A stretch of DNA of 64,000 bases from a phage. A model generated the notes under the pieces. That model was given only the letters and a program-made list of their open reading frames with translations. It searched no databases and was not told the DNA's origin. Positions 2,870-34,527 of this stretch are shown here, piece after piece. The position numbers were made by a program, and so were the translations under genes. Location: the sequence record PV419677.1. One strand, 5' to 3'. The number at the start of each line of letters is the position of its first letter. The first letter of the stretch is position 1.

Positions 2870-3814
2870 TTAATAAAATTCAGCAATATTTGCAGTTAGT
2901 TTAGACAGACCAGACTTAACAAAGTAAGGATAAACTTTACTTTTGGCTGGGATAACGTAGTTATTATATCGTTCTAAGATTGAAGCGGATATTTCCGCTG
3001 GGATAAAGTCCATATCAATCAACAATTGGTTTTCACAGAATCTATTATATTGCTCTTCTGTTAAAAGCGTTTTCAAAACGTCATGGTCGTAATAATTGAG
3101 TGCAATTTGTTCAAGCTCAGCAGCGCGGGTCGGTGGGGTGCGTTCACCTTCTTCACGAGTGTAATAAAAATCACCACGAACCTTGATGCTTGACACGTTA
3201 TCTTTTTTGTCACCTTTAACAACCTTTGTCACGCAATCCATAAGAGCATCGCCTGATTTAGTTTTGACATATTTTTTCTGCATCGGTGACCATTGTTTTA
3301 CCCCAGGGAATTTATGCAACTGGGTAAAGTCGCCATCCGAAGAAACAACCATAACCGGATGTCCGAGACCAGTGAGCAATTTCGTTAATACTGCAATATG
3401 GTCGTCAGCCTCAATTTTATCCATATTCATCACGATGTAAGGCATATGTTTTTCCATTTCATCAATGATGATATGCATGGCAGCGTGTAGACCTTCCCAA
3501 TCAAATTGTGACTCTTCACGAGCTTTTGCACGGTTTTTCTTATAATAATAAGATTTCGTGCGTCGCCAATAACCATTCTTCGAATTATCAACACAAATAA
3601 TTGGGACTGTATAACCGAGCTTTTTAAACTGTACAATGTTTTTTCTGATAGAGTTCAGAACCAGATGTCTGGTCATTGCGGTTGTCACCTTAGGGAAGCC
3701 CGCGTCTTTACCGAATTCCTGGAAGGCTGCTGCCATGATGAGCTGACTAAAATCGAGTAACTGAAAACCATCTTTTTGACGGTCTTCTTCAGGGAGTAAA
3801 AAATCTAAATTCAT
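2870..3814 (-). CDS. rnh: RNase H / 5'-3' exonuclease
   Basis: 314 aa; motifs YYKKNRAKAREES, SSDGDFTQLH as in T4 RNase H (305 aa). Confidence 0.9.
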   Translation of the reverse strand: MNLDFLLPEEDRQKDGFQLLDFSQLIMAAAFQEFGKDAGFPKVTTAMTRHLVLNSIRKNIVQFKKLGYTVPIICVDNSKNGYWRRTKSYYYKKNRAKAREESQFDWEGLHAAMHIIIDEMEKHMPYIVMNMDKIEADDHIAVLTKLLTGLGHPVMVVSSDGDFTQLHKFPGVKQWSPMQKKYVKTKSGDALMDCVTKVVKGDKKDNVSSIKVRGDFYYTREEGERTPPTRAAELEQIALNYYDHDVLKTLLTEEQYNRFCENQLLIDMDFIPAEISASILERYNNYVIPAKSKVYPYFVKSGLSKLTANIAEFY

Positions 3815-3871
3815 ATGAACCTCTGTTCAATTAGTTGACTCGATTATATTAGCATAAAATTTTTAAAGCAA

Positions 3872-3879
3872 TATAAATA
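3872..3879 (+). promoter_or_regulatory. late promoter (TATAAATA) for gene 34
   Basis: exact TATAAATA about 30 nt upstream of gp34 ATG. Confidence 0.6.
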
Positions 3880-3909
3880 CACGTATACCAATCAATAAGG
3901 ATAAAGCAC

Positions 3910-6900
3910 ATGGCCGATATTTTAAAACCAGCATTCAGAGCAACATCCGGTCTCGATGCGGCTGGTGAGAAAGTCATTAATGTCGCGAAAGCTGATTTCT
4001 CAGTTTTGTCAGACGGCGTTAACGTAGACTTCTTTATAGAAGAAAACACAATTCAACAATATGATGCAACACGCGGATATAAGAAAGATTTTGCAGTTAT
4101 CTATGATAACCGTATTTGGGTTTCCCAACGTGAAATCGCAGAACCAGCTGGCCCATTTGTTCAGCAATATTGGACCGCAACCCGTACTGACCCGAAATGG
4201 GAAACTGTTGCATCACCAACTCGTCAGCTTAGCTCCGGGGAATTTATCGCAGTCGACTCAGCTGCAAGCTTTACCACATTTACATTGCCTCCGAACCCGA
4301 CTGATGGTGATACCATCGTTATTAAAGATATCGGCGGTAATACCGGTTATAATGAAATTAAAATCCAGTCAAGCAACGTGCCTGGCCAAGGTAACCAAAA
4401 GATTGTTCGCTTTGGTAATCAGTATTCAGAAGTTTTAATTACCAAACCATTCTCTTATAACATGCTTATCTTTTCAAACCGCTTATGGCAATTTTGGGAA
4501 GCAGGTAACGAAGAACGTGGTATCAGAGTAGAACCGTCGACCGGACGTTTCCATGCACAAGCTGGCGACTTTATTATGCGTCGTTATACAACTGGTGCAC
4601 CGATTACTTTCATTCTTCCTAAGTATGCAAACCAGGGTGATATTGTCAAATCTGTTGATATCGATGGCATGGGGCCAACGTTCCACCTGATGGTTGAAAC
4701 CTTTGACACCAGTTCCAGTCTTGGTAAAGCTGGCCAGCATCAAATGGAATTCCGTACCACAGGTGATGGTTTCTTCGTTTATGATGCTGCCGAAAAACTC
4801 TGGCATGTTTGGGACGGTGATTTTAAAACTCGTCTTCGTGTTATTCGCGACAGCGTTAAACTTTTACCAAACGAAAGTGTCATTGTATTTGGCGAAGATA
4901 ACTCAACTCCGGCAACGATTAATATCGATTTACCAACGGATGTTTTGCAAGGCGATATTGTTAAGATTGCGCTGAACTATCTCCGTAAATCGCAGACTGT
5001 TAATATAAGAGCTGCTGTCGGCGATAAGATTGCAACTGACATTAAATTGCTGCAATTCCCTAAACGTTCCGAGTATCCACCAGATACAACTTGGGTGATG
5101 GTTGATTCATTGACCTTTAATGGCAACATCAGTTATACTCCGGTTATTGAATTATCATATGCAGAAGATGCAGTGTCTGGAACAAGTTATTGGGTTGTCG
5201 CTCAGAACGTCCCGACTGTCGAACGAGTTGACTCATTAAATGATTCCACGCGTACACGTCTTGGTGTTATTGCTCTGGCAAACCAGACTCAGGCAAACGT
5301 TGACCATGAAAATAACCCAGAGAAAGAACTCGCAATTACACCTCAGACTTTAGCCAACCGTGTTGCTAAAGAGAACCAACGAGGCATTGCCAGAATCGCA
5401 ACGACTGCCCAAGTAAATCAGAACAGTGATTTTGCATTTGTTGATGATGTAATTATTTCTCCGAAAAAACTCAATGAACGTACGGCAACAGAAACGAGAC
5501 GTGGGCTCGCAGAACTCGCCACACAGCAAGAAACCGATGCGGGTGTAGATGATACCACAATTATAACTCCAAAGAAACTGCAAGCTCGCCAGGGCTCAGA
5601 ATCGCTATCCGGTATTGTAACTTACGTTTCAACGACTGGTGCAACTCCTGCTGCTTCGCGTGAATTAAATGGTACAAACGTTTATAATAAAAATACGGTT
5701 AATCTGGTTGTTTCTCCGAAAGCTCTTGACCAGTACAAAGCTACTTACACCCAGCAAGGCGCGGTTATTCTTGCGGTTGAAAGTGAAGTAATCGCTGGTA
5801 CTTCTCAATCTGGCTGGGCAAACGCAGTCGTTACTCCAGAAATGTTGCATCGCAAAACTGCTCTTGATTCCCGTATCGGTTTAATCGAGATTGCTACTCA
5901 AGTTGAAACAGATGCAGGAACCGATTATACCAGAGCTGTGACTCCTAAAACGTTAAATGACCGTAAAGCATCAGAAACGTTAACCGGCATAGCCGAGATT
6001 GCTACGCAATCAGAATTTGATACTGGAACTGATGATACTCGTATCTCAACTCCATTAAAAATTAAAAATAGATTTAATAATACTGCTCGTACTTCTGTTA
6101 ATGCATTAAGTGGTTTAGTAGAAACAGGGACGCTCTGGGACCATTATAGCCTGAATATTCTTGAAGCAAATGAGACTCAGCGTGGCACAGCAAGATTAGC
6201 AACTCAGGGTGAAGTCAATACTGGCACTGACGATAAAACAATCGTTACTCCGCTTAAATTGATGTCGAAAAAAGCCACTGAAAACGCCGAAGGTATTGTT
6301 CGCATCGCGACAAACGCAGAAGCAACAGCAGGCACATCAAAAGTCTTGGCCATTAGTCCGTCTGCGCTGAAATATATTGCCCAAACGGAAACAACTTGGG
6401 AAGCATCTGAAACACTGCGTGGATTTGTTCGTTTATCTTCCGGTGCAGCTACTTCGGCCGCAACTACAACGACGGGCGCGGGATTTACATATGAAAATGG
6501 TGTGTATACCCCGGACCCAAGTAAACTGGTTAGCTATGCGAAATCTGGATATGCAGTTTCGCCTTACGAATTAAACCGCGTATTGCAAAACTTCTTACCG
6601 ATAAATGCGATGGCTGTTAATGCTGAAAAACTGGATAACCTCGATTCGACCCAGTTTATTCGTCGTGATATTGCTCAGACTGTTGAAGGTGTATTAACCC
6701 TTACTAAGCAGACAAATATCTCTGCTCCGGTTGTATCGACGAGCACTGCGGTGTTTACTGATGTAACGGCTGGTACTTCGACGTTCGGAACTGTGAATGT
6801 TGTTAATGGAACTAACAAGTGGAAAATCACTGCTCCTTCCGCCGGAACAACAATGACTATTGGCGATACGACTAACGTATTGACATTAAACACCGCCTCG

Positions 6901-26858: not shown

Positions 26859-27068
26859 TCACTTTATGTTACGTTTGATTAATTCTGCAACTTCAAGAAG
26901 TTCATCCTTTGTTGCGGTGTCTGAAGCTATTTTAATACGGATTTCTTTGAAGCGTTCTTTAAACTCTTCAGCTTCTCTTATATCAAAAAATCGTTGGATA
27001 ACACGGTATTCTTTATGGACAGCTTTATCAAACAGTTCCATATTAACTTTGAAGTTTGTCATTTCCAA
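26859..27068 (-). CDS. hypothetical protein
   Basis: 69 aa. Confidence 0.45.
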   Translation of the reverse strand: MEMTNFKVNMELFDKAVHKEYRVIQRFFDIREAEEFKERFKEIRIKIASDTATKDELLEVAELIKRNIK

Positions 27069-27327
27069 TCTCCTGCAATATTTTTCTCATACTACGCATG
27101 GTAGCTTTATGTTCTTGGCCATGGTATATCAATGCAAGGAGTGCTTCAATTCGCTCCTCAGGAACCTTCTGGCCAGCCTTAATGCTCATGGCTGATGCTC
27201 TTACAGCCAACAAGTAACTTCGCTTCCTGTCGCTATCTGGGAGCTCCTGTACCTTCCTCAGACCTGCTTCCATAATACAACGTGCAACATTCTGCAGATT
27301 AACTAAACTTCCGTCAGACATAATCAT
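27043..27327 (-). CDS. hypothetical protein
   Basis: 94 aa. Confidence 0.45.
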   Translation of the reverse strand: MIMSDGSLVNLQNVARCIMEAGLRKVQELPDSDRKRSYLLAVRASAMSIKAGQKVPEERIEALLALIYHGQEHKATMRSMRKILQEIGNDKLQS

Positions 27328-27373
27328 ATGTTCACCTCAAGGATATCTTAACGCAATTTTTGTGGCTTGTACA

Positions 27374-27398
27374 TAATAAAAAAGGACCCGAAGGTCCT
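27374..27398 (-). terminator. rho-independent terminator
   Basis: GGACC-UUCG-GGUCC hairpin plus U-run after the 50-aa ORF stop. Confidence 0.55.
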
Positions 27399-27403
27399 TT
27401 TGG

Positions 27404-27556
27404 CTACTCAACTTTATAGACTTGCCCATATGCGGTATAGTATTCGCCATCCCAAGTCTCGCACATAATGGTGACAAAGGATGCAAACAGAGGTTTAGTA
27501 TCGGCCCACAGATAACCGTATTCGCCATTTGACAACGTAACCCACCACTTTTTCAT
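27404..27556 (-). CDS. hypothetical small protein (50 aa)
   Basis: ATG with AGGAGA Shine-Dalgarno; protein-like composition; overlapping track ORF 27337..27528 is another frame and runs through the terminator. Confidence 0.4.
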   Translation of the reverse strand: MKKWWVTLSNGEYGYLWADTKPLFASFVTIMCETWDGEYYTAYGQVYKVE

Positions 27557-27574
27557 GGACTTCTCCTATAAGAC

Positions 27575-27590
27575 GGGAGAATATTCTCCC
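27575..27590. promoter_or_regulatory. perfect 16-bp palindrome GGGAGAATATTCTCCC
   Basis: sits between gp39 stop and the next ORF; could be RNA hairpin or protein-binding site. Confidence 0.4.
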
Positions 27591-27598
27591 ACATCTAT

Positions 27599-29431
27599 TT
27601 ATAGTGTTGCATTCATCCAATCTTTACGCTGCTGGGAATCTTTACCGAAGAGCATTTCGAACAGTTCTTTCCAGTTGTCGGGCAATTGAACAACTTCGAA
27701 TACCGGTTCGAGCAATACGCGTTTGTACTCGGCATCTTCCAGAGAACCAAGTCCCTTTATATATCTGATAGTATGCTTCGGAAGTTTATCCTTAGCTTCT
27801 TCATAATCAGGAAGAGAATAGAACCATTCTTGTTTATCTTTGAGCTGCGCAATAATAACAGGAGTTTTCACAAAGCGAATTCGTCCTTCATGGAACAGCT
27901 CTGGCCAGTTACTGAAAAACGCCAATAACGATGGATAGATACTACCAACACCATCCACATCCGCATCTGTCATGATAGCAATGTTTCGGTAATTCATATT
28001 CTCGGCCGGTTGTCCAATCGTTAAACCAGTAATCGCACACACATCAAAGGCTTCGGCGTTCTTCATAACGTCAACAGCTTTCAGACCCCATGTGTTTTTG
28101 AACTTACCACGTAACGGATAAGCACCTTGCAATTCACGGTCGCGAACCTTGATAAATGGCCCGGTTGCAGAATCACCTTCGGTCAGGAATAGAGTCGTTT
28201 CCAGCTTATCATTGCCCCATTCGTTGGCCTTGATATGCTTTTGCACCTTGGCCTTTGAAGCTTTCTTATTCGCCTTGGTCTCTGCTGCTTTCTCTGCAGC
28301 CAATTTACGGGCTAATGCAGCTTCAACAATCGGCATAATCAGCGGTTCATTTTTCAGAATAGCTTGCGCGATTTTCTTGGCATCAATCTTAATGTGATTT
28401 CGAATTTCACCAGCTGGAGAAGTCAGTCGCTCCTTAGTCTGGGAATCAAATCGCATGTTGCTCATATCGCGGATGAACATAAGCATGGTGAGGCATTCTT
28501 TAACTCGTGCCTTGGTCACCTCGATGCCTTTATATTTGCGCTTAATGGCCGGCTGAAGGTGTTCACAGATATCATCCATAACACATTCAACGTGGTGTCC
28601 ACCATTCTTTGTATGAATGTTGTTGACATAAGTCAGCTGTCGAAAACCGTCCGGGCTAGTCGTAAAGGCCATCGATACTGTATCCGTTTCCTGGATAACA
28701 ACTTCGGTTCCGAATTGCTTGGCGAACTTCTTGAAATTGCCATCAACCTTTTTACCATTAAAGGTAAACTGAATATCCGGATAAACAACCGCAAGAGTCT
28801 GCAGACGGTCCAATGTAATATCCAGATAAATCTGGGACAGGCTATTTTCTTCAAAGTGACTGAAGTCCGGAACAAAAATAACAGTTGTACCTTTACCCTT
28901 AGATTTCTTGGTAGACCAACCTTTGTTTTCCATACCATTGGAGCAGTTAACGGTGATTTCATTTGTGCCGTCGGCAGTAATCCCGGTGAACAATACAGAG
29001 AAAATATTAGTCAGAGAAGACCCGACGCCATTCATCCCGCCAGTTTTACGTTCAGCATCATCACCGAAGTTACCACCTGCTTTTGGAATAGTCCATGCTG
29101 CAACAGGGCCAGGGATTTGTTCACCGTTTTGGTCTGTAACCATTGCTTGTGGAATACCACGGCCATTATCAGAAACCGAAATCTGATTATCTTTAATTTG
29201 GACATCAATTTTATTGGCAAATTTAAAACTGGTGCGAATTGCTTCATCAACAGAGTTATCGATAATTTCATCAATCAGTTTTACAATACCAGGAACATAG
29301 CTTACGGACTTATATTCACCAAACAAGAATCGCTCATGCGCTTCATTTGAACTGGAACCAATATACATCCCGGAACGTTTTTTGATATGCTCGACGTCCG
29401 AGAGTACTTTAATTTCATTATTAATCATCAT
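27599..29431 (-). CDS. 39: DNA topoisomerase II large subunit gp39 (unsplit, includes gene-60 equivalent)
   Basis: 610 aa; GyrB-like ATPase N-terminus; single ORF rather than T4's 39 + 60. Confidence 0.9.
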   Translation of the reverse strand: MMINNEIKVLSDVEHIKKRSGMYIGSSSNEAHERFLFGEYKSVSYVPGIVKLIDEIIDNSVDEAIRTSFKFANKIDVQIKDNQISVSDNGRGIPQAMVTDQNGEQIPGPVAAWTIPKAGGNFGDDAERKTGGMNGVGSSLTNIFSVLFTGITADGTNEITVNCSNGMENKGWSTKKSKGKGTTVIFVPDFSHFEENSLSQIYLDITLDRLQTLAVVYPDIQFTFNGKKVDGNFKKFAKQFGTEVVIQETDTVSMAFTTSPDGFRQLTYVNNIHTKNGGHHVECVMDDICEHLQPAIKRKYKGIEVTKARVKECLTMLMFIRDMSNMRFDSQTKERLTSPAGEIRNHIKIDAKKIAQAILKNEPLIMPIVEAALARKLAAEKAAETKANKKASKAKVQKHIKANEWGNDKLETTLFLTEGDSATGPFIKVRDRELQGAYPLRGKFKNTWGLKAVDVMKNAEAFDVCAITGLTIGQPAENMNYRNIAIMTDADVDGVGSIYPSLLAFFSNWPELFHEGRIRFVKTPVIIAQLKDKQEWFYSLPDYEEAKDKLPKHTIRYIKGLGSLEDAEYKRVLLEPVFEVVQLPDNWKELFEMLFGKDSQQRKDWMNATL

Positions 29432-29471
29432 CTTTCCTCTTGTGTATGGAGGTATTATAAGTCACATATTT

Positions 29472-29495
29472 TAAAGCAAAAAGGCCCGAAGGCCT
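29472..29495 (-). terminator. rho-independent terminator
   Basis: GGCC-UUCG-GGCC hairpin plus U-run downstream of lipoprotein gene. Confidence 0.5.
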
Positions 29496-29755
29496 TATTC
29501 AAATCGGATGGTACTGTTCTTGAATAGCAAACCAGAACAAACAGTTCCTTCAACTTTCTTACCAGTTGGGCCCACGGCCGTAAAGCCTGTATGTTGGAAA
29601 TCATCTTTACCGCAAGAGAACCAATTATATCCGGTGATTTGGATTTGCTCATAGCCGTTTGCATCTAATACACGAATGGCGTTATCTGCATCAGTACAAC
29701 CAGCTAATGAAACCGCCAGCACCAGCGCGGCAATAGAACGATTAATGTATTTCAT
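29495..29755 (-). CDS. putative lipoprotein
   Basis: 86 aa; signal peptide with lipobox LAGC. Confidence 0.6.
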   Translation of the reverse strand: MKYINRSIAALVLAVSLAGCTDADNAIRVLDANGYEQIQITGYNWFSCGKDDFQHTGFTAVGPTGKKVEGTVCSGLLFKNSTIRFE

Positions 29756-29761
29756 AATTTC

Positions 29762-29938
29762 TCACTTAGTCAGCAGGTCGTAAAAACCGCCATTAACATG
29801 TTTAGGGGCCGAGACTAACCGAACAGCCAGCCGATGGCAATCAGGACAAACATCATTATCTCTTTCAGAGATTTTCTTGATTTTTTCGTATTCTTTCGCG
29901 CAGTCATCAGATTGGCATTTGTAATCATAAAGTGGCAT
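29762..29938 (-). CDS. FmdB-like zinc-ribbon protein (58 aa)
   Basis: MPLYDYKC...C(17)...CPDC with N-terminus like FmdB family MPIYEYxC; AAGGA Shine-Dalgarno; below ORF-track cutoff. Confidence 0.45.
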   Translation of the reverse strand: MPLYDYKCQSDDCAKEYEKIKKISERDNDVCPDCHRLAVRLVSAPKHVNGGFYDLLTK

Positions 29939-29939
29939 G

Positions 29940-30311
29940 TTATTCCTTAAAGTGTGCTTTCAACATCTGGTAAACGGTCCAGGCTTCGGAGTTATTAGAG
30001 ATGGTGATTTTAGTCAAAGGGAATTCGCTTGGCTCAGATGGAGCCGCGTCTTCGCATTCATCTTCAGTATCGTCATCTTTTTCTTCTTCAAAGAAATGGA
30101 ATTCATCTTCCTTTATGAATAGGCTCACAAATTCACCAGTTGATAATTCCATTTTATACACATCACCATCTTCAATTCTGACTGGTCTAAATCCCTCGCC
30201 ATTGATTATAGCATTGGCTATATTATCATTATCTGTGCATAACAAACGGAATCTGCTTTCAGCAACATTATCTTTAAAATAATACCACTTATCAGTTTCA
30301 AATTTAGACAT
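29940..30311 (-). CDS. hypothetical acidic protein
   Basis: 123 aa from ATG at 30311 (AAGGAG Shine-Dalgarno); acidic stretch EEEKDDDTEDECEDAAPSEPSE. Confidence 0.5.
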   Translation of the reverse strand: MSKFETDKWYYFKDNVAESRFRLLCTDNDNIANAIINGEGFRPVRIEDGDVYKMELSTGEFVSLFIKEDEFHFFEEEKDDDTEDECEDAAPSEPSEFPLTKITISNNSEAWTVYQMLKAHFKE

Positions 30312-30528
30312 TATAAATCTCCTTCCAAAAATCCGTACCATTTTCTGATTCTTCGCGGAACAACGCATAACTAGGTAATTTTGCGTCTTTGTCTGCATAC
30401 ACATAAATGATATCAGTGGTGCAAAGAAATTCATTGATGTTTTTCTTCACAATCACTTTATCACTTTCGGCAGTGTCCCAAAACTCTTCAGCGGTCAGGG
30501 AAGTGGTCACACAATCTGCATTAAACAT
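30304..30528 (-). CDS. hypothetical protein
   Basis: 74 aa; GAGGAGA Shine-Dalgarno. Confidence 0.5.
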   Translation of the reverse strand: MFNADCVTTSLTAEEFWDTAESDKVIVKKNINEFLCTTDIIYVYADKDAKLPSYALFREESENGTDFWKEIYNV

Positions 30529-30576
30529 AATATTCTCCTCATTGATAGGGCAAAATTACCCTATCATTTTTATAAT

Positions 30577-31131
30577 TTAGGCAAAATGGATATCAGCATA
30601 CTCAACGATAAAGCTCTCAGGAACAACCTTAAAGGTTCCAAGGAACACGATATTATACAGTTTGACACCTTCTTCAACCCACTGGTCTGTGATGTAACCA
30701 GACATGCTAGTGGTTTCATAAGTCGGACCATACATGCAATTGTATTCAAACGGTTTAGGTGAAACAAAAAAGACACCTTTGCCCAATTTCCATTTAAAAT
30801 CAACCCCAACATGAGACTGGTCAATGGTTTCAACGTCTTGAGCAATTACGCCACGGATATCATTGCTTTCGCACACATATCCATCATGGGATTCAACTTC
30901 CTCAGACACAGGAGCGATATATCCAGTAAATTCGGTTGATTCCAGGAATTTAGGATGCACATAAGCCAATTGAGTTTCAGTCTGACCATTTTTAGGAATG
31001 ATACGCACTTTAACTTCTTTAATTCCACCTACTAAATTAGTGCGAAGACCCACAACCTCAACAAAACGACCAGCAGCTTTAGAACGAGATTCTTTAGAAA
31101 CACGTACAATATCACCAGCTTCAACTTTCAT
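30577..31131 (-). CDS. hypothetical protein, paralog of 31211..31966 (shared C-terminal domain)
   Basis: 184 aa; C-terminus YITDQWVEEGVKLYNIVFLGTFKVVPESFIVEY aligns with GWVTDQWIEDGVELLNVVHAGEFTVVPRSMVVE. Confidence 0.6.
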   Translation of the reverse strand: MKVEAGDIVRVSKESRSKAAGRFVEVVGLRTNLVGGIKEVKVRIIPKNGQTETQLAYVHPKFLESTEFTGYIAPVSEEVESHDGYVCESNDIRGVIAQDVETIDQSHVGVDFKWKLGKGVFFVSPKPFEYNCMYGPTYETTSMSGYITDQWVEEGVKLYNIVFLGTFKVVPESFIVEYADIHFA

Positions 31132-31162
31132 AATTTTCTCTCTTGGTTAATAAGTTTATTCT

Positions 31163-31202
31163 CCAGTGGGGTCATTATACTCTGACCCCAAGAGTTTGTA
31201 CA
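31163..31202 (-). promoter_or_regulatory. early promoter cassette (type A)
   Basis: 44 bp identical to 20096..20138. Confidence 0.55.
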
Positions 31203-31210
31203 CTTTAAAT

Positions 31211-31966
31211 TTAATTAAAAATTTCAACAACCATAGAACGTGGTACAACAGTAAATTCACCAGCATGGACAACGTTCAGGAGTTCAACACCATCTTCAAT
31301 CCACTGGTCTGTTACCCAACCACAAATGGAACTATTAAATGGGCGTTTGATTTGAACTGGTTTGCATAACAAGTCAATAGGGTCACCCAGTTCGCTAACT
31401 TCTTCCAGCAGTACAGATTCACGCGGATAAAGGATAGCTTCAAGATTGTCACCTGATTCATTGACCGCAGTAAATTCAAAGATGCTTTGGTGATTGTGGT
31501 ACTTAACTGTTTTAACGGTAAATGGAGCAAATCCAAAAATACCTTTCAGTACCCGCCACCCGGCATGCATTGCAACAGTCTTTCCAAACTGACTGGCATC
31601 TTCAATAAGCTGATAGGTTTTACCAACTTTGATAGGAGTTTCTTCAACTTCCTTGAAGAGCTCAATCTCAGCTTCATAAACAATAATTTTTTCTACTTCA
31701 TTAGTATCAAGGCGACGTGCATGCAGAATATATGCGTTATAAAACCAGTTACTTTTTACAAAAGTTTCAACAATAAATTCACCTTCACCTAAAGCATCAG
31801 CCAGAGTATTATACCCAGAAATCATAGCTGCGTTTTGAGTAATAGGTTTAACCAGATGATAAGTTTTGTTAATTTCAATAGTCATATTTTGTTTCTCAAG
31901 TTTTAATGGTTTAATTGGGCGAACATACATACTTACAACATCAAAGTCAATAAATTCTGGTTTCAT
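31211..31966 (-). CDS. hypothetical protein, paralog of 30577..31131
   Basis: 251 aa; shares C-terminal domain with neighbour. Confidence 0.6.
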   Translation of the reverse strand: MKPEFIDFDVVSMYVRPIKPLKLEKQNMTIEINKTYHLVKPITQNAAMISGYNTLADALGEGEFIVETFVKSNWFYNAYILHARRLDTNEVEKIIVYEAEIELFKEVEETPIKVGKTYQLIEDASQFGKTVAMHAGWRVLKGIFGFAPFTVKTVKYHNHQSIFEFTAVNESGDNLEAILYPRESVLLEEVSELGDPIDLLCKPVQIKRPFNSSICGWVTDQWIEDGVELLNVVHAGEFTVVPRSMVVEIFN

Positions 31967-32223
31967 TATGCAACCTTATTGAACATCGCCAGTTGGTTAG
32001 GTTGTACAACCATAATTTCACGACGACCTTTTGCGTTTGACACGTTCAAGTAGATACCTTTGTTCATGTCTGTTTCTTTATCATATACCGCAATTTTATT
32101 GACAGTAAAGATTTTACCACGAATATTTGCAAATGCACATTCAAACGCTTCAGTCAGACCTGCTTCAGCAGCTTGAAGAGCAGACATTTCATATTGTTGG
32201 CCAATTTCAAAAGAAGTAATCAT
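31966..32223 (-). CDS. hypothetical protein
   Basis: 85 aa from ATG at 32223; upstream in-frame residues are translated leader. Confidence 0.45.
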   Translation of the reverse strand: MITSFEIGQQYEMSALQAAEAGLTEAFECAFANIRGKIFTVNKIAVYDKETDMNKGIYLNVSNAKGRREIMVVQPNQLAMFNKVA

Positions 32224-32229
32224 TTTGTT

Positions 32230-32285
32230 ATCCTCATCAGTAGTTGATGAGGTGATTATGTCTCTTTCCATTGGCCTTGTACACT
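32230..32285 (-). promoter_or_regulatory. early promoter cassette (type A) with leader stem-loop
   Basis: GTGTACA -35; leader CCUCAUCA-ACUAC-UGAUGAGG hairpin sequesters Shine-Dalgarno. Confidence 0.5.
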
Positions 32286-32290
32286 ACTTT

Positions 32291-32974
32291 TTATCGTTTT
32301 TTCGGTAAAGATAACGGGTCTGCATCTTCTTCGGAAGGAACTTCATCCAAACCAAGAGCATAGCGCTGGGCATACTTAAGCATCAAAATATCTTTCGCGC
32401 AGTCATGCACCGAATCGTGCGCCACAAATCCGTCTAAAGTCCCCTTCGGTAATGGAGTTTCACACATCTTACGGACGAGTGACAGGGCTTCGATTGCTGT
32501 TCTGATATCTCGCTGGTTCCAGAATACAACCGGCTCCAGGCCATAGGTATTCAATTCACGCTCGGGAATACCCTCATTGCGCTGTAGGTCACGGATAAGG
32601 TCAACAAACAACGGGAAGTCAAAAGACATTCCACGACACCACATAAGGCTTTCGTATTTGTTAATTCCATTACCATTCAGATAATCAATTGCCTGTTGGA
32701 TACCGGTCAGAGTATCAACATCTTGCGCAGAAGGAGCCAAGTTAACACGGGCTTCTGCTGATTGCTTTTTCCACCAACCCATGGTTGTTGTATCGAACAG
32801 ACGCTTACCTTTTTGGTATTCAAGGCTAAACTTGATACGTTTGCCGCGATTAACCAGGGTTTCGAATGATTCCACAATAACAGGGTCAGATTCGAATGTA
32901 ATCAGGGCCAGGTCAATAACGGCTCCCTTCGAGCCGTTTCCCAGAGTTTCAAAGTCAATAATAGCATCAATCAT
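32291..32974 (-). CDS. dexA: exonuclease A (DnaQ-like 3'-5' exonuclease)
   Basis: 227 aa, same length as T4 DexA; MIDAIIDFETLG exo motif I; synteny next to dda. Confidence 0.8.
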   Translation of the reverse strand: MIDAIIDFETLGNGSKGAVIDLALITFESDPVIVESFETLVNRGKRIKFSLEYQKGKRLFDTTTMGWWKKQSAEARVNLAPSAQDVDTLTGIQQAIDYLNGNGINKYESLMWCRGMSFDFPLFVDLIRDLQRNEGIPERELNTYGLEPVVFWNQRDIRTAIEALSLVRKMCETPLPKGTLDGFVAHDSVHDCAKDILMLKYAQRYALGLDEVPSEEDADPLSLPKKR

Positions 32975-33206
32975 CGCACATCTCTTTTAATTTTTGAATT
33001 TCACCAGCAACATAGTCGGAGATAAAAATCCCTGGCTCTTCATTGTTAAAATATTCAATCGCGGCCATACGTTTCCGAATAAGATTCAGTTCCAGCAAAA
33101 CGTAATTACCCTGCACGACGATAGTCGGATTATCTTCGAAAAATTCAACCGCGTCCTGAATACCATAGATAAGATTATCTAAATCTTCTTTATGTACTTT
33201 ATACAT
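32967..33206 (-). CDS. hypothetical protein
   Basis: about 80 aa; start uncertain (track ORF begins at 33242). Confidence 0.35.
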   Translation of the reverse strand: MYKVHKEDLDNLIYGIQDAVEFFEDNPTIVVQGNYVLLELNLIRKRMAAIEYFNNEEPGIFISDYVAGEIQKLKEMCDD

Positions 33207-34527
33207 AATATGCGTCGTACCTCGCTCGTGTGATTCCAACATAAGCCAACTGGCTCGCTAATGAAGCTTCGGCCATATGGATGCATGGAGTATAGATGAA
33301 TGCTTTGTCCACTGAAACGCCTTGGGCCTTGTGGATTGTACTGACCGGAAGAGCACGGACTTTCAAGAAGGTCCTGCGCGCTTTCCAGAAGTCTTTCCAC
33401 TCTGGACGTTTACCAGCGGCTTTCATCTGTTTGTATGTGTCAGCAACTTTCGCCAGATATGCCTGGAATTTTGGTTGCTGGTCTTCTGGTAAAACTTTAA
33501 TGCGGTCAACCTGATATTCTTCATCTTCATCAATTGACTCAACTTCCAGGTCCCAGTAATTAATCACTAACTGGTGCGATTCGCCTTTACAACGGAGAAT
33601 GGTGGAAGTGTATTTGCAATCCTTGATGCGAACCAACTGACCATTATTAAAAATGGTTTCGCTGAATTTCTTACCTTCAAATTCCAGCTCTTTCATGTGC
33701 GGCTCTTGCATAACCAGGACTTCATACGGTAAAAATGCTTTATCCGTTTCATAGAGCTTGCGACGAATAATATTGTTCAGTTTTTCAACTGATTTATTCG
33801 TGTATGCATACATCCTGTTTTCCATCAACATATCAGCATCTTTTACAATACTGAAATAGTTTACCAGGAAATCCTTTAAAGCGGTTTGTGAGGTGAAACC
33901 TTGCACGCCATGACCTTCATACATACAGTCACGGAACCAGCCGCCATTGCGAATTTCTGTCGCCACTTCAATGATAGGAGCATTGCTTCGCATGACCTCA
34001 GTCAGATGAATCTGTTTGAACTTAGGATGCGTAAAGAACGGGCTTATCTTTTGCTGTGTGCTTCCCGGGTCAACTGGCTGCAGCTGGTGCATATCACCAA
34101 TTCCAAGAATAGTGCACCATTTAGGAACAGAGTTAAGAATAATCTTAAACAGAGACCCGTCATACATACTTGCTTCATCACAAACCAGAACATTGCATTT
34201 TGACATGTCAGGCATTTCGCGCTGTTCAAAAACGTTTTGGTCTTCATATGTCGTTGGGTTAATCTTCAAGATACTATGGATTGTATTCGCTGTTTGACCA
34301 GACAATTTAGATAAAACTTTTTTCGCCTGGTGAGTTGGTGCAGCAAGCACAATTCCCATAACTCCATTACGCACTAAGTGGTCAATGACAAATTTTGTCA
34401 GAGTGGTCTTACCTGTGCCAGCTGGACCATTCAGAGTGATACATTCCCCTGAACGTCGCTGAATAGCTTCAGTAATATAATCAAAAGCTTCTTTTTGTCC
34501 TGTGTTCAAGTCTTCAAATTTAATCAT
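33199..34527 (-). CDS. dda: Dda DNA helicase
   Basis: 442 aa (T4 439 aa); Walker A GPAGTGKTTL; long match to recalled Dda. Confidence 0.9.
   Translation of the reverse strand: MIKFEDLNTGQKEAFDYITEAIQRRSGECITLNGPAGTGKTTLTKFVIDHLVRNGVMGIVLAAPTHQAKKVLSKLSGQTANTIHSILKINPTTYEDQNVFEQREMPDMSKCNVLVCDEASMYDGSLFKIILNSVPKWCTILGIGDMHQLQPVDPGSTQQKISPFFTHPKFKQIHLTEVMRSNAPIIEVATEIRNGGWFRDCMYEGHGVQGFTSQTALKDFLVNYFSIVKDADMLMENRMYAYTNKSVEKLNNIIRRKLYETDKAFLPYEVLVMQEPHMKELEFEGKKFSETIFNNGQLVRIKDCKYTSTILRCKGESHQLVINYWDLEVESIDEDEEYQVDRIKVLPEDQQPKFQAYLAKVADTYKQMKAAGKRPEWKDFWKARRTFLKVRALPVSTIHKAQGVSVDKAFIYTPCIHMAEASLASQLAYVGITRARYDAYYV

Follow-up and report, generated by a model that had tools for sequence, protein, structure and literature searches.

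Genes between motB and gene 39 of a T4-like Gaprivervirus as a conserved T-even early block, cef-goF-39.2-39.1

The stretch between motB and gene 39 in the phage sequence PV419677.1 very probably corresponds to the conserved T-even early block cef-goF-39.2-39.1 in a T4-like Gaprivervirus, with genes not for a single system but for four independent small proteins, each of which would tune a different process of host or phage. The whole stretch of DNA that was analysed, 64,000 nucleotides in length, is referred to here as the window. Each of the four is an annotated orthologue of a named T4 gene and already known from published genomes that are nearly identical in this region, and the main value of the analysis lies in a correction: the genes should be labelled cef-goF-39.2-39.1 and should not be flagged as a defence or anti-defence island. 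A previous interpretation based on the letters and open reading frames (the sequence-only reading) had described four tightly packed genes of unknown role at 29495-30528 as an accessory island downstream of gene 39, and had considered functions in superinfection exclusion or anti-restriction. The four ORFs, including the fourth one for a 74-aa protein at 30304-30528, were indeed all found within these limits on the minus strand, and the unknown role still holds for gp39.1. It does not hold for 39.2, goF and cef, which are T4 genes with known or partly known roles. The genes of the block and their neighbours are as follows.

29495..29755, minus strand: gene 39.1, 86-aa lipoprotein precursor
29762..29938, minus strand: gene 39.2, 58-aa FmdB-type four-cysteine zinc ribbon
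29940..30311, minus strand: goF (comC-alpha), 123 aa, acidic
30304..30528, minus strand: cef, 74 aa, orthologue of T4 Cef
27599..29431, minus strand: gene 39, which encodes the large subunit of DNA topoisomerase II in its unsplit form (610 aa) and directly follows the block in transcription
30577..31131, minus strand: motB, next gene upstream (Pfam motB, 1.3e-49; 47% identity to T4 MotB)
31211-31966: motB.1, order shared with T4
32291-32974: dexA, order shared with T4

At the DNA level, the region shares 97.8% identity with Escherichia phage pEC-M719-6WT.2 and 91.5% with Shigella phage SP18, of the genus Gaprivervirus in the subfamily Tevenvirinae, and the records of both phages annotate the lipoprotein, the zinc ribbon, goF, cef, motB and gene 39. 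The T4 gene order dexA-motB-cef-goF-39.2-39.1-39 is the same as that of the window, and in SP18 and T4 every gene in the series dda-dexA-...-motB-cef-goF-39.2-39.1-39 points leftward. Genes 39.1 and 39.2 are separated by 6 nt and 39.2 and goF by 1 nt, while goF and cef overlap by 8 nt. Homologues of the block genes reach E values of 1e-50 to 1e-76 and are present in 1,069 (39.1), 888 (39.2), 728 (goF) and 811 (cef) phage records, which places the genes far beyond chance. The database matches all fit the minus-strand genes, and the plus-strand ORFs of the stretch are short antisense shadows. Since transcription runs leftward, the block lies upstream of gene 39 and not downstream of it, as had been stated. 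The synteny with T4, together with the 728-1,069 records per gene, likewise argues for a conserved T-even early region and against an accessory island, and the GC content of the block (0.38-0.41) is no different from that of the remaining window. Near distant homologues of 39.1, in distant phages and on bacterial contigs, no homologues of 39.2, goF or cef were found, so that beyond the T-even phages the four genes are not inherited together as a system. None of the four proteins matched a PADLOC defence or anti-defence profile, the zinc-ribbon family was their sole NCBIfam match, and an Rfam scan of positions 27000-33500 on both strands gave nothing at E values up to 0.1.

Three further elements on the minus strand bear on how the block may be transcribed.

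29481..29496, minus strand: terminator-like hairpin AAGGCC-UUCG-GGCCUU followed by the U-rich run UUUGCUUU, from a pattern scan
29454..29480, minus strand: putative middle promoter for gene 39, consisting of the MotA box TTTGCTTTA (29480-29472), a 12-nt spacer and the -10 element TATAAT (29459-29454)
30543..30566, minus strand: hairpin between motB and cef, with a stem of 8 bp, that directly precedes the ribosome-binding site of cef (GAGGAG)

The hairpin at 29481-29496 begins within the stop codon of 39.1; T4 has the same hairpin behind 39.1, and SP18 has it behind an extra gene. It probably either closes the early transcription unit or stabilises RNA. The promoter assignment is based on the published consensus of T4 middle promoters. 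Within 27000-34000, the MotA-box pattern has a single match on the minus strand, and the arrangement of MotA box and -10 element is kept in SP18 and, as TTAGCTTTA-12 nt-TATAAT, in T4. As the conserved hairpin is followed by a MotA-box promoter, we infer by analogy with T4 that the four genes are the last ones of an early unit that starts upstream and that gene 39 would be served by its own putative middle promoter. The block would then be transcribed leftward together with motB from upstream early promoters, with the early timing taken from T4, and the early unit would stop at the hairpin just ahead of the MotA-dependent promoter of gene 39. The hairpin upstream of cef lacks a U-tract when read on the coding strand.

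The 74-aa protein is assigned as the orthologue of T4 Cef based on its matches to the Pfam family PF24050 T4_Cef (81.7 bits, cut-off 27, E = 3e-23), to phrog_1354 (8e-25) and to T4 Cef itself (36% identity, E = 3e-11). T4 Cef is slightly shorter, with 71 aa, and both genes are placed between motB and goF. In T4, genetic work has identified Cef as a modifier of suppressor tRNAs that takes part in the processing of a phage tRNA cluster; an ongoing NMR study of the protein has led its authors to suggest a novel fold. A sequence search of solved structures with the window protein gave nothing meaningful. If the T4 role can be transferred, Cef would aid the maturation of phage tRNA precursors. No tRNA genes were found within the 64-kb window, which is part of the genome.

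The second gene to be assigned, 39.2, was absent from the ORF track because its product of 58 aa falls under the 60-aa cut-off for ORFs. The sequence-only reading had nonetheless picked it out as an FmdB-like zinc ribbon, an assignment that is borne out by scores above the cut-offs for both Pfam PF09723 Zn_ribbon_8 (44.1 bits, cut-off 34.4) and TIGR02605, the FmdB family (45.5 bits, cut-off 31.3). FmdB-type proteins were defined here by the pattern CxxxxC ... CxxC within the approximately 40 N-terminal residues combined with a profile score above threshold, and 39.2 shows the cysteines as C8xxxxC13 ... C31xxC34. The protein is identical in 54 of 58 positions to the 58-aa protein of T4 strain GT7. 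It shares with T4 Gp39.2 (NwgI) its length of 58 aa, the four cysteines, the C-terminal tail PKHVNGGFYDLL and the place between goF and 39.1, differs from it by four substitutions and is, by sequence, its orthologue. T4 Gp39.2/NwgI is a 58-aa modulator of GroEL/GroES (Ang and Georgopoulos 2012, Genetics 190:989; described in PMC5153855). According to the same source, Gp39.2 moves GroEL toward an open form that binds the co-chaperonin, and a T4 39.2 deletion mutant does not grow on specific groEL mutant hosts. Carried over from T4 genetics, the role of the window protein would be to shift GroEL to the open state that binds GroES or a phage co-chaperonin, by which the folding of phage proteins would be secured. 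Also for 39.2, a sequence search of solved structures produced nothing meaningful.

The 123-aa protein had been noted for a strongly acidic segment, and it has a pI of 4.3, 30 D/E among its 123 residues and a run of 13 D/E in 20 residues around positions 68-88. The longest ORF in the goF frame has 164 aa and starts at 30434; the start at 30311, giving 123 aa, is indicated by an AAGGAGA ribosome-binding site and by all homologues. BLASTP aligns residues 3-123 with residues 4-141 of T4 GoF (E = 1e-16, 33% identity), and the protein is identified from these comparisons as GoF, a member of the GoF-MotB.1-Frd.2 LSm-like family. Its predicted layout consists of an SH3/LSm-like N-domain (approximately residues 1-78), for which FeoA is the nearest solved fold in a model-based comparison, an acidic linker (approximately 79-95) and a C-terminal segment with a helix (97-123). 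This pattern reproduces the LSm-like/SH3-like N-domain, flexible linker and C-terminal domain described by Kim et al. 2025 (PMC12152347). T4 GoF and the window protein have in common homology over the full length, the predicted SH3/LSm-like N-domain, the acidic flexible linker and the C-terminal segment. However, the T4 protein is longer (141 aa) and contains an N-domain insertion that the window protein lacks, and the window protein has a Leu in place of D25. T4 goF mutations bring back growth on certain rho mutants, and GoF(D25Y) stabilises gene 41 mRNA and thereby raises its level, an effect limited to D25Y; the wild type is inactive in the RNA-stability assay. Borrowing the role from T4, GoF would be an LSm/SH3-like protein acting post-transcriptionally on mRNA. 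In an alignment of relatives, the N-terminal part is conserved and the C-terminal 27 residues are nearly invariant. The acidic stretch, while found in all GoF homologues, is the least conserved and most indel-rich part and varies in length and sequence even among close relatives. This variability, together with modelling at pLDDT < 50 (i.e. predicted disorder), suggests that the acidic run is best read as a disordered linker rather than a structured DNA mimic, and it would serve as a flexible connection between the N-domain and the conserved C-terminal segment.

Different functions can be proposed for both 39.2 and GoF. Many phage records label homologues of 39.2 as 'FmdB-like transcriptional regulator', and a role as a transcription regulator that does not act on GroEL would agree with its membership of the FmdB zinc-ribbon family and with its neighbours motB and goF, which act on transcription or RNA. 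However, the label is an annotation inherited from the family name without such evidence, a protein of 58 aa amounts to a zinc knuckle with a short tail and nothing more, and the GroEL action of the 93% identical T4 protein has been shown both genetically and biochemically (PMC5153855); we consider a regulator highly improbable. For GoF, the sequence-only reading had suggested that the acidic segment imitates nucleic acid. This could take the form of an anti-restriction DNA mimic of the Ocr/ArdA type or of a linker that auto-inhibits the LSm-like RNA-binding face of GoF itself, and the marked acidity of the protein and the presence of the acidic stretch in all homologues speak for either. The acidic tail of Hfq auto-inhibits by folding back onto the RNA-binding face, and the inactivity of wild-type T4 GoF compared to the active D25Y variant is compatible with a relieved auto-inhibition. 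However, the auto-inhibition variant is pure inference. In Ocr and ArdA the acidic residues sit on a rigid, conserved fold and imitate the DNA backbone as structured charge arrays, whereas the run in GoF is disordered and shifts in length between close relatives, and the conserved portions of the protein are the SH3/LSm-like domain and the C-terminal segment. Moreover, GoF matched none of the defence and anti-defence profiles, and T4 genetics ties goF to rho and mRNA levels, not to restriction. A nucleic-acid mimic thus seems improbable to us, and a flexible linker in an LSm-like protein is preferred. More generally, superinfection exclusion or anti-restriction is not supported for 39.2, GoF and Cef, whose orthologues are tied to GroEL, mRNA stability and tRNA maturation, respectively. 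Homology to housekeeping-type proteins, which the sequence-only reading had itself listed as an outcome against its proposal, was found for all three genes.

The product of the last gene in the block, gp39.1, had been described as an 86-aa lipoprotein with an LAGC lipobox, and this description holds. Its N-terminus, MKYINRSIAALVLAVSLAGC, contains K2 and R6, the hydrophobic core IAALVLAVS and the lipobox L-A-G-C with Cys20, followed by a Thr at position +2. Bacterial-type lipoproteins, the substrates of Lgt and LspA, were defined here by a positively charged N-terminus, a hydrophobic core, a lipobox of the form [LVI][ASTVI][GAS]C and conservation of the Cys, and all of these features are present. 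The lipobox Cys is kept in 25 of the 29 aligned relatives, and the other four keep a hydrophobic anchor. Across the family the strict lipobox pattern is found in 192 of 247 members, with most others having a looser lipobox or a transmembrane anchor, and the Cys is mostly followed by Thr or Ser. The score with Pfam LPAM_1 (14.5) is under the threshold of 20, as is common for such a short motif. By sequence gp39.1 is a genuine lipoprotein, for which lipid modification and sorting are predicted. According to the +2 rule, Thr, as opposed to Asp, predicts Lol-dependent sorting to the outer membrane, and on account of this residue the domain is probably tethered in the periplasm at the inner face of the outer membrane. 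Weak NCBIfam matches to LptM and MepS lie below the cut-offs and cover the signal peptide alone. A function as a spanin was also ruled out, there being no gene for a partner inner-membrane spanin and the location being in the early region.

The mature domain of gp39.1 comprises approximately 66 aa and is predicted to consist of a four-stranded antiparallel sheet with one helix packed against it. In the alignment of 29 sequences, C48 and C73 and the motifs TGY..F.C, HTGFTA and GTVCSG..FKNSTIRF are invariant. The predicted fold is similar to small alpha+beta domains of the cystatin/PepSY/VirB8-like type, including the colicin M immunity protein; the gp39.1 domain would be tethered to the membrane in the periplasm and has cysteines suited for a disulfide. 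Identity is 94% to gp39.1 of SP18 and 66 of 86 residues to 39.1 of T4 GT7, and some records label the gene 'lipoprotein'. A deep profile search places the protein in a family of 2,375 clusters at 50% identity, nearly all of them 80-120 aa in length, which ranks it among the larger uncharacterised phage protein families. No Pfam family scored above threshold for gp39.1, ten longer relatives inspected for domain fusions contained no informative Pfam domain, and a Foldseek search against viral models returned uncharacterised family members only. Relatives with approximately 45-57% identity are present in phages or phage-like contigs tied to Rhizobium, Sphingobium, Vibrio and Flagellimonas. Distant phages carry the gene among those for thymidylate synthase, NrdD/G, MazG and Dda, that is, among nucleotide-metabolism and other non-structural genes. 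Matches in bacterial genomes amount to eight loci, and two of these (L008 and L012) are phage-like when their ORFs are read, with an endolysin-like peptidase, a recombination exonuclease and a MazG-like gene. The contexts of the family include enterobacteria, vibrios, rhizobia, sphingomonads and one Flagellimonas genome.

What gp39.1 does in the envelope can be approached by comparison with known lipoproteins of phages. A function in superinfection exclusion, as in the case of T5 Llp, which jams FhuA, or of T4 Sp and Imm, which act at entry steps, had been proposed and could apply to gp39.1 alone among the four proteins. It would suit a small lipoprotein with a disulfide-capable domain that is encoded in the early gene region and whose fold class resembles small periplasmic inhibitor or immunity proteins, for instance the one against colicin M. 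T5 Llp, too, is a small lipoprotein of the outer membrane that is early and contains a disulfide, and Llp/Cor-type proteins share with gp39.1 the small size, the disulfide-capable cysteine pair and the early region (PMC9586334). However, the genes of known exclusion lipoproteins adjoin the gene of the receptor-binding protein and track the receptor (PMC9586334), whereas in all phages examined 39.1 is surrounded by genes for replication, transcription and nucleotide metabolism. In T-even phages it adjoins gene 39 and 39.2, and none of the loci examined has a tail or tail-fibre gene next to it. T4 and T6 use different receptors, yet their 39.1 proteins are identical in 84 of 86 residues. Nor was gp39.1 found to resemble Llp/Cor proteins in sequence or fold, and a search of solved structures, Llp included, with the 39.1 family profile gave no match. 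Because it shows neither adjacency to receptor genes nor co-variation with the receptor, gp39.1 is unlike an exclusion protein of the T5 Llp type, and we regard this function as unlikely; a broader role in exclusion or envelope protection is similarly doubtful. The conservation of 39.1 at approximately 45-57% identity across phages of widely different hosts points to a conserved target in Gram-negative envelopes rather than to a receptor, and gp39.1 probably binds something that these envelopes have in common. The preferred reading is that gp39.1, after export and lipid modification at Cys20, would probably reach the outer membrane, on whose inner face its disulfide-bonded cystatin/PepSY-like domain would most likely bind, and block or stabilise, a conserved envelope component. 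As a tentative extension, which we hold to be possible and not probable, gp39.1 may represent a very large unnamed phage family (approximately 2,400 clusters, with no Pfam model) of membrane-tethered periplasmic domains that act on a conserved Gram-negative envelope component by an undescribed takeover mechanism, with the T4 copy hidden by frameshifts in the reference sequence.

Since gp39.1 is so well conserved among phages whose hosts are far apart, it would be reasonable to study the gene by simple genetics in T4. In the T4 reference record NC_000866 two genes of the block are mis-framed: 39.2 is given with 45 aa instead of 58, and 39.1 with 65 aa and no signal peptide. Both genes are intact in the resequenced T4 strain GT7 and in hundreds of relatives, indicating that T4 gp39.1 is a lipoprotein as well, one that is invisible in the reference annotation.

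The public labels of 39.2 and 39.1, which encode the 58-aa zinc-ribbon protein and the 86-aa lipoprotein of the block upstream of gene 39, are unreliable. In the T6 record AP018814 (L017, 645-1461), 39.2 is named 'baseplate wedge subunit', the name given to 39.1 is 'XRE family transcriptional regulator', and in other records the label 'transcriptional regulator' is given to 39.2. In the T4 reference record NC_000866, 39.2 is given a length of 45 aa rather than 58, and the annotated 39.1 is a 65-aa protein that lacks the signal peptide and lipobox and reads LINS in place of LIGC. Sequence comparison of this region (L002, 5398-5839) with that of the resequenced T4 GT7 (KJ477686; L003, 1300-1780) showed that these short annotations are due to differences between NC_000866 and GT7 in the two genes, which comprise insertions of single bases and a small number of substitutions. 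T4 GT7 encodes an intact 58-aa 39.2 and an intact 86-aa 39.1, both unannotated in KJ477686, and the differences in NC_000866 are probably old sequencing errors.

The composition of the block also varies between phages by an extra gene encoding a protein of 123–133 aa, which lies at the 39.1/39 junction in SP18 and EAWsc9 and at the 39.2/39.1 junction in T6:

SP18 locus (L001), 3598-3996: extra gene, 39.1/39 junction
T6 locus (L017), 824-1195: extra gene, 39.2/39.1 junction

The extra gene is absent from the window, where the 39.1-39 junction spans 29432-29494. The SP18 and T6 copies share 37% identity (E = 4e-16) and are weakly similar to MotB.1. The extra gene may thus be distantly related to the GoF/MotB.1 family and have been gained or lost at differing junctions of the block.

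Beyond motB, two further genes extend towards dexA:

31211-31966, minus strand: motB.1, 251 aa
31966-32271, minus strand: 101-aa ORF between dexA and motB.1, at the position of T4 motB.2

While MotB.1 of T4 has 119 aa, the 251-aa protein of the window appears to contain the MotB.1/GoF-like N-domain twice in tandem, with one copy matched at residues 112-223 (E = 2e-16) and the other, weakly, at residues 30-109. Its final ~40 residues also contain the MotB C-terminal motif (Pfam motB, 1.3e-8), and the end of the protein is 49% identical to residues 117-153 of T4 MotB. The 101-aa ORF matches phrog_17795 (85 profile positions; E = 4e-58) from residue 17 onwards, which suggests that the internal Met17 may be its real start. 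The EAWsc9 counterpart is annotated as a DUF2693 protein of 85 aa.

On the other side of the block, gene 39 is unsplit:

27599-29431, minus strand: gene 39, topoisomerase large subunit, 610 aa

In contrast to T4, both this gene and its SP18 counterpart lack the T4-specific 39/60 split with its mobA insertion and translational bypass.

The motB-cef spacer contains one further element:

30543-30566: hairpin with an 8-bp stem, immediately before the cef ribosome-binding site

A T-run accompanies this hairpin on the plus (non-coding) strand only. GGAG, the motif at which the T4 endoribonuclease RegB cleaves early mRNAs, occurs in the ribosome-binding site of cef (GAGGAG) as well as in that of goF (AAGGAGA).
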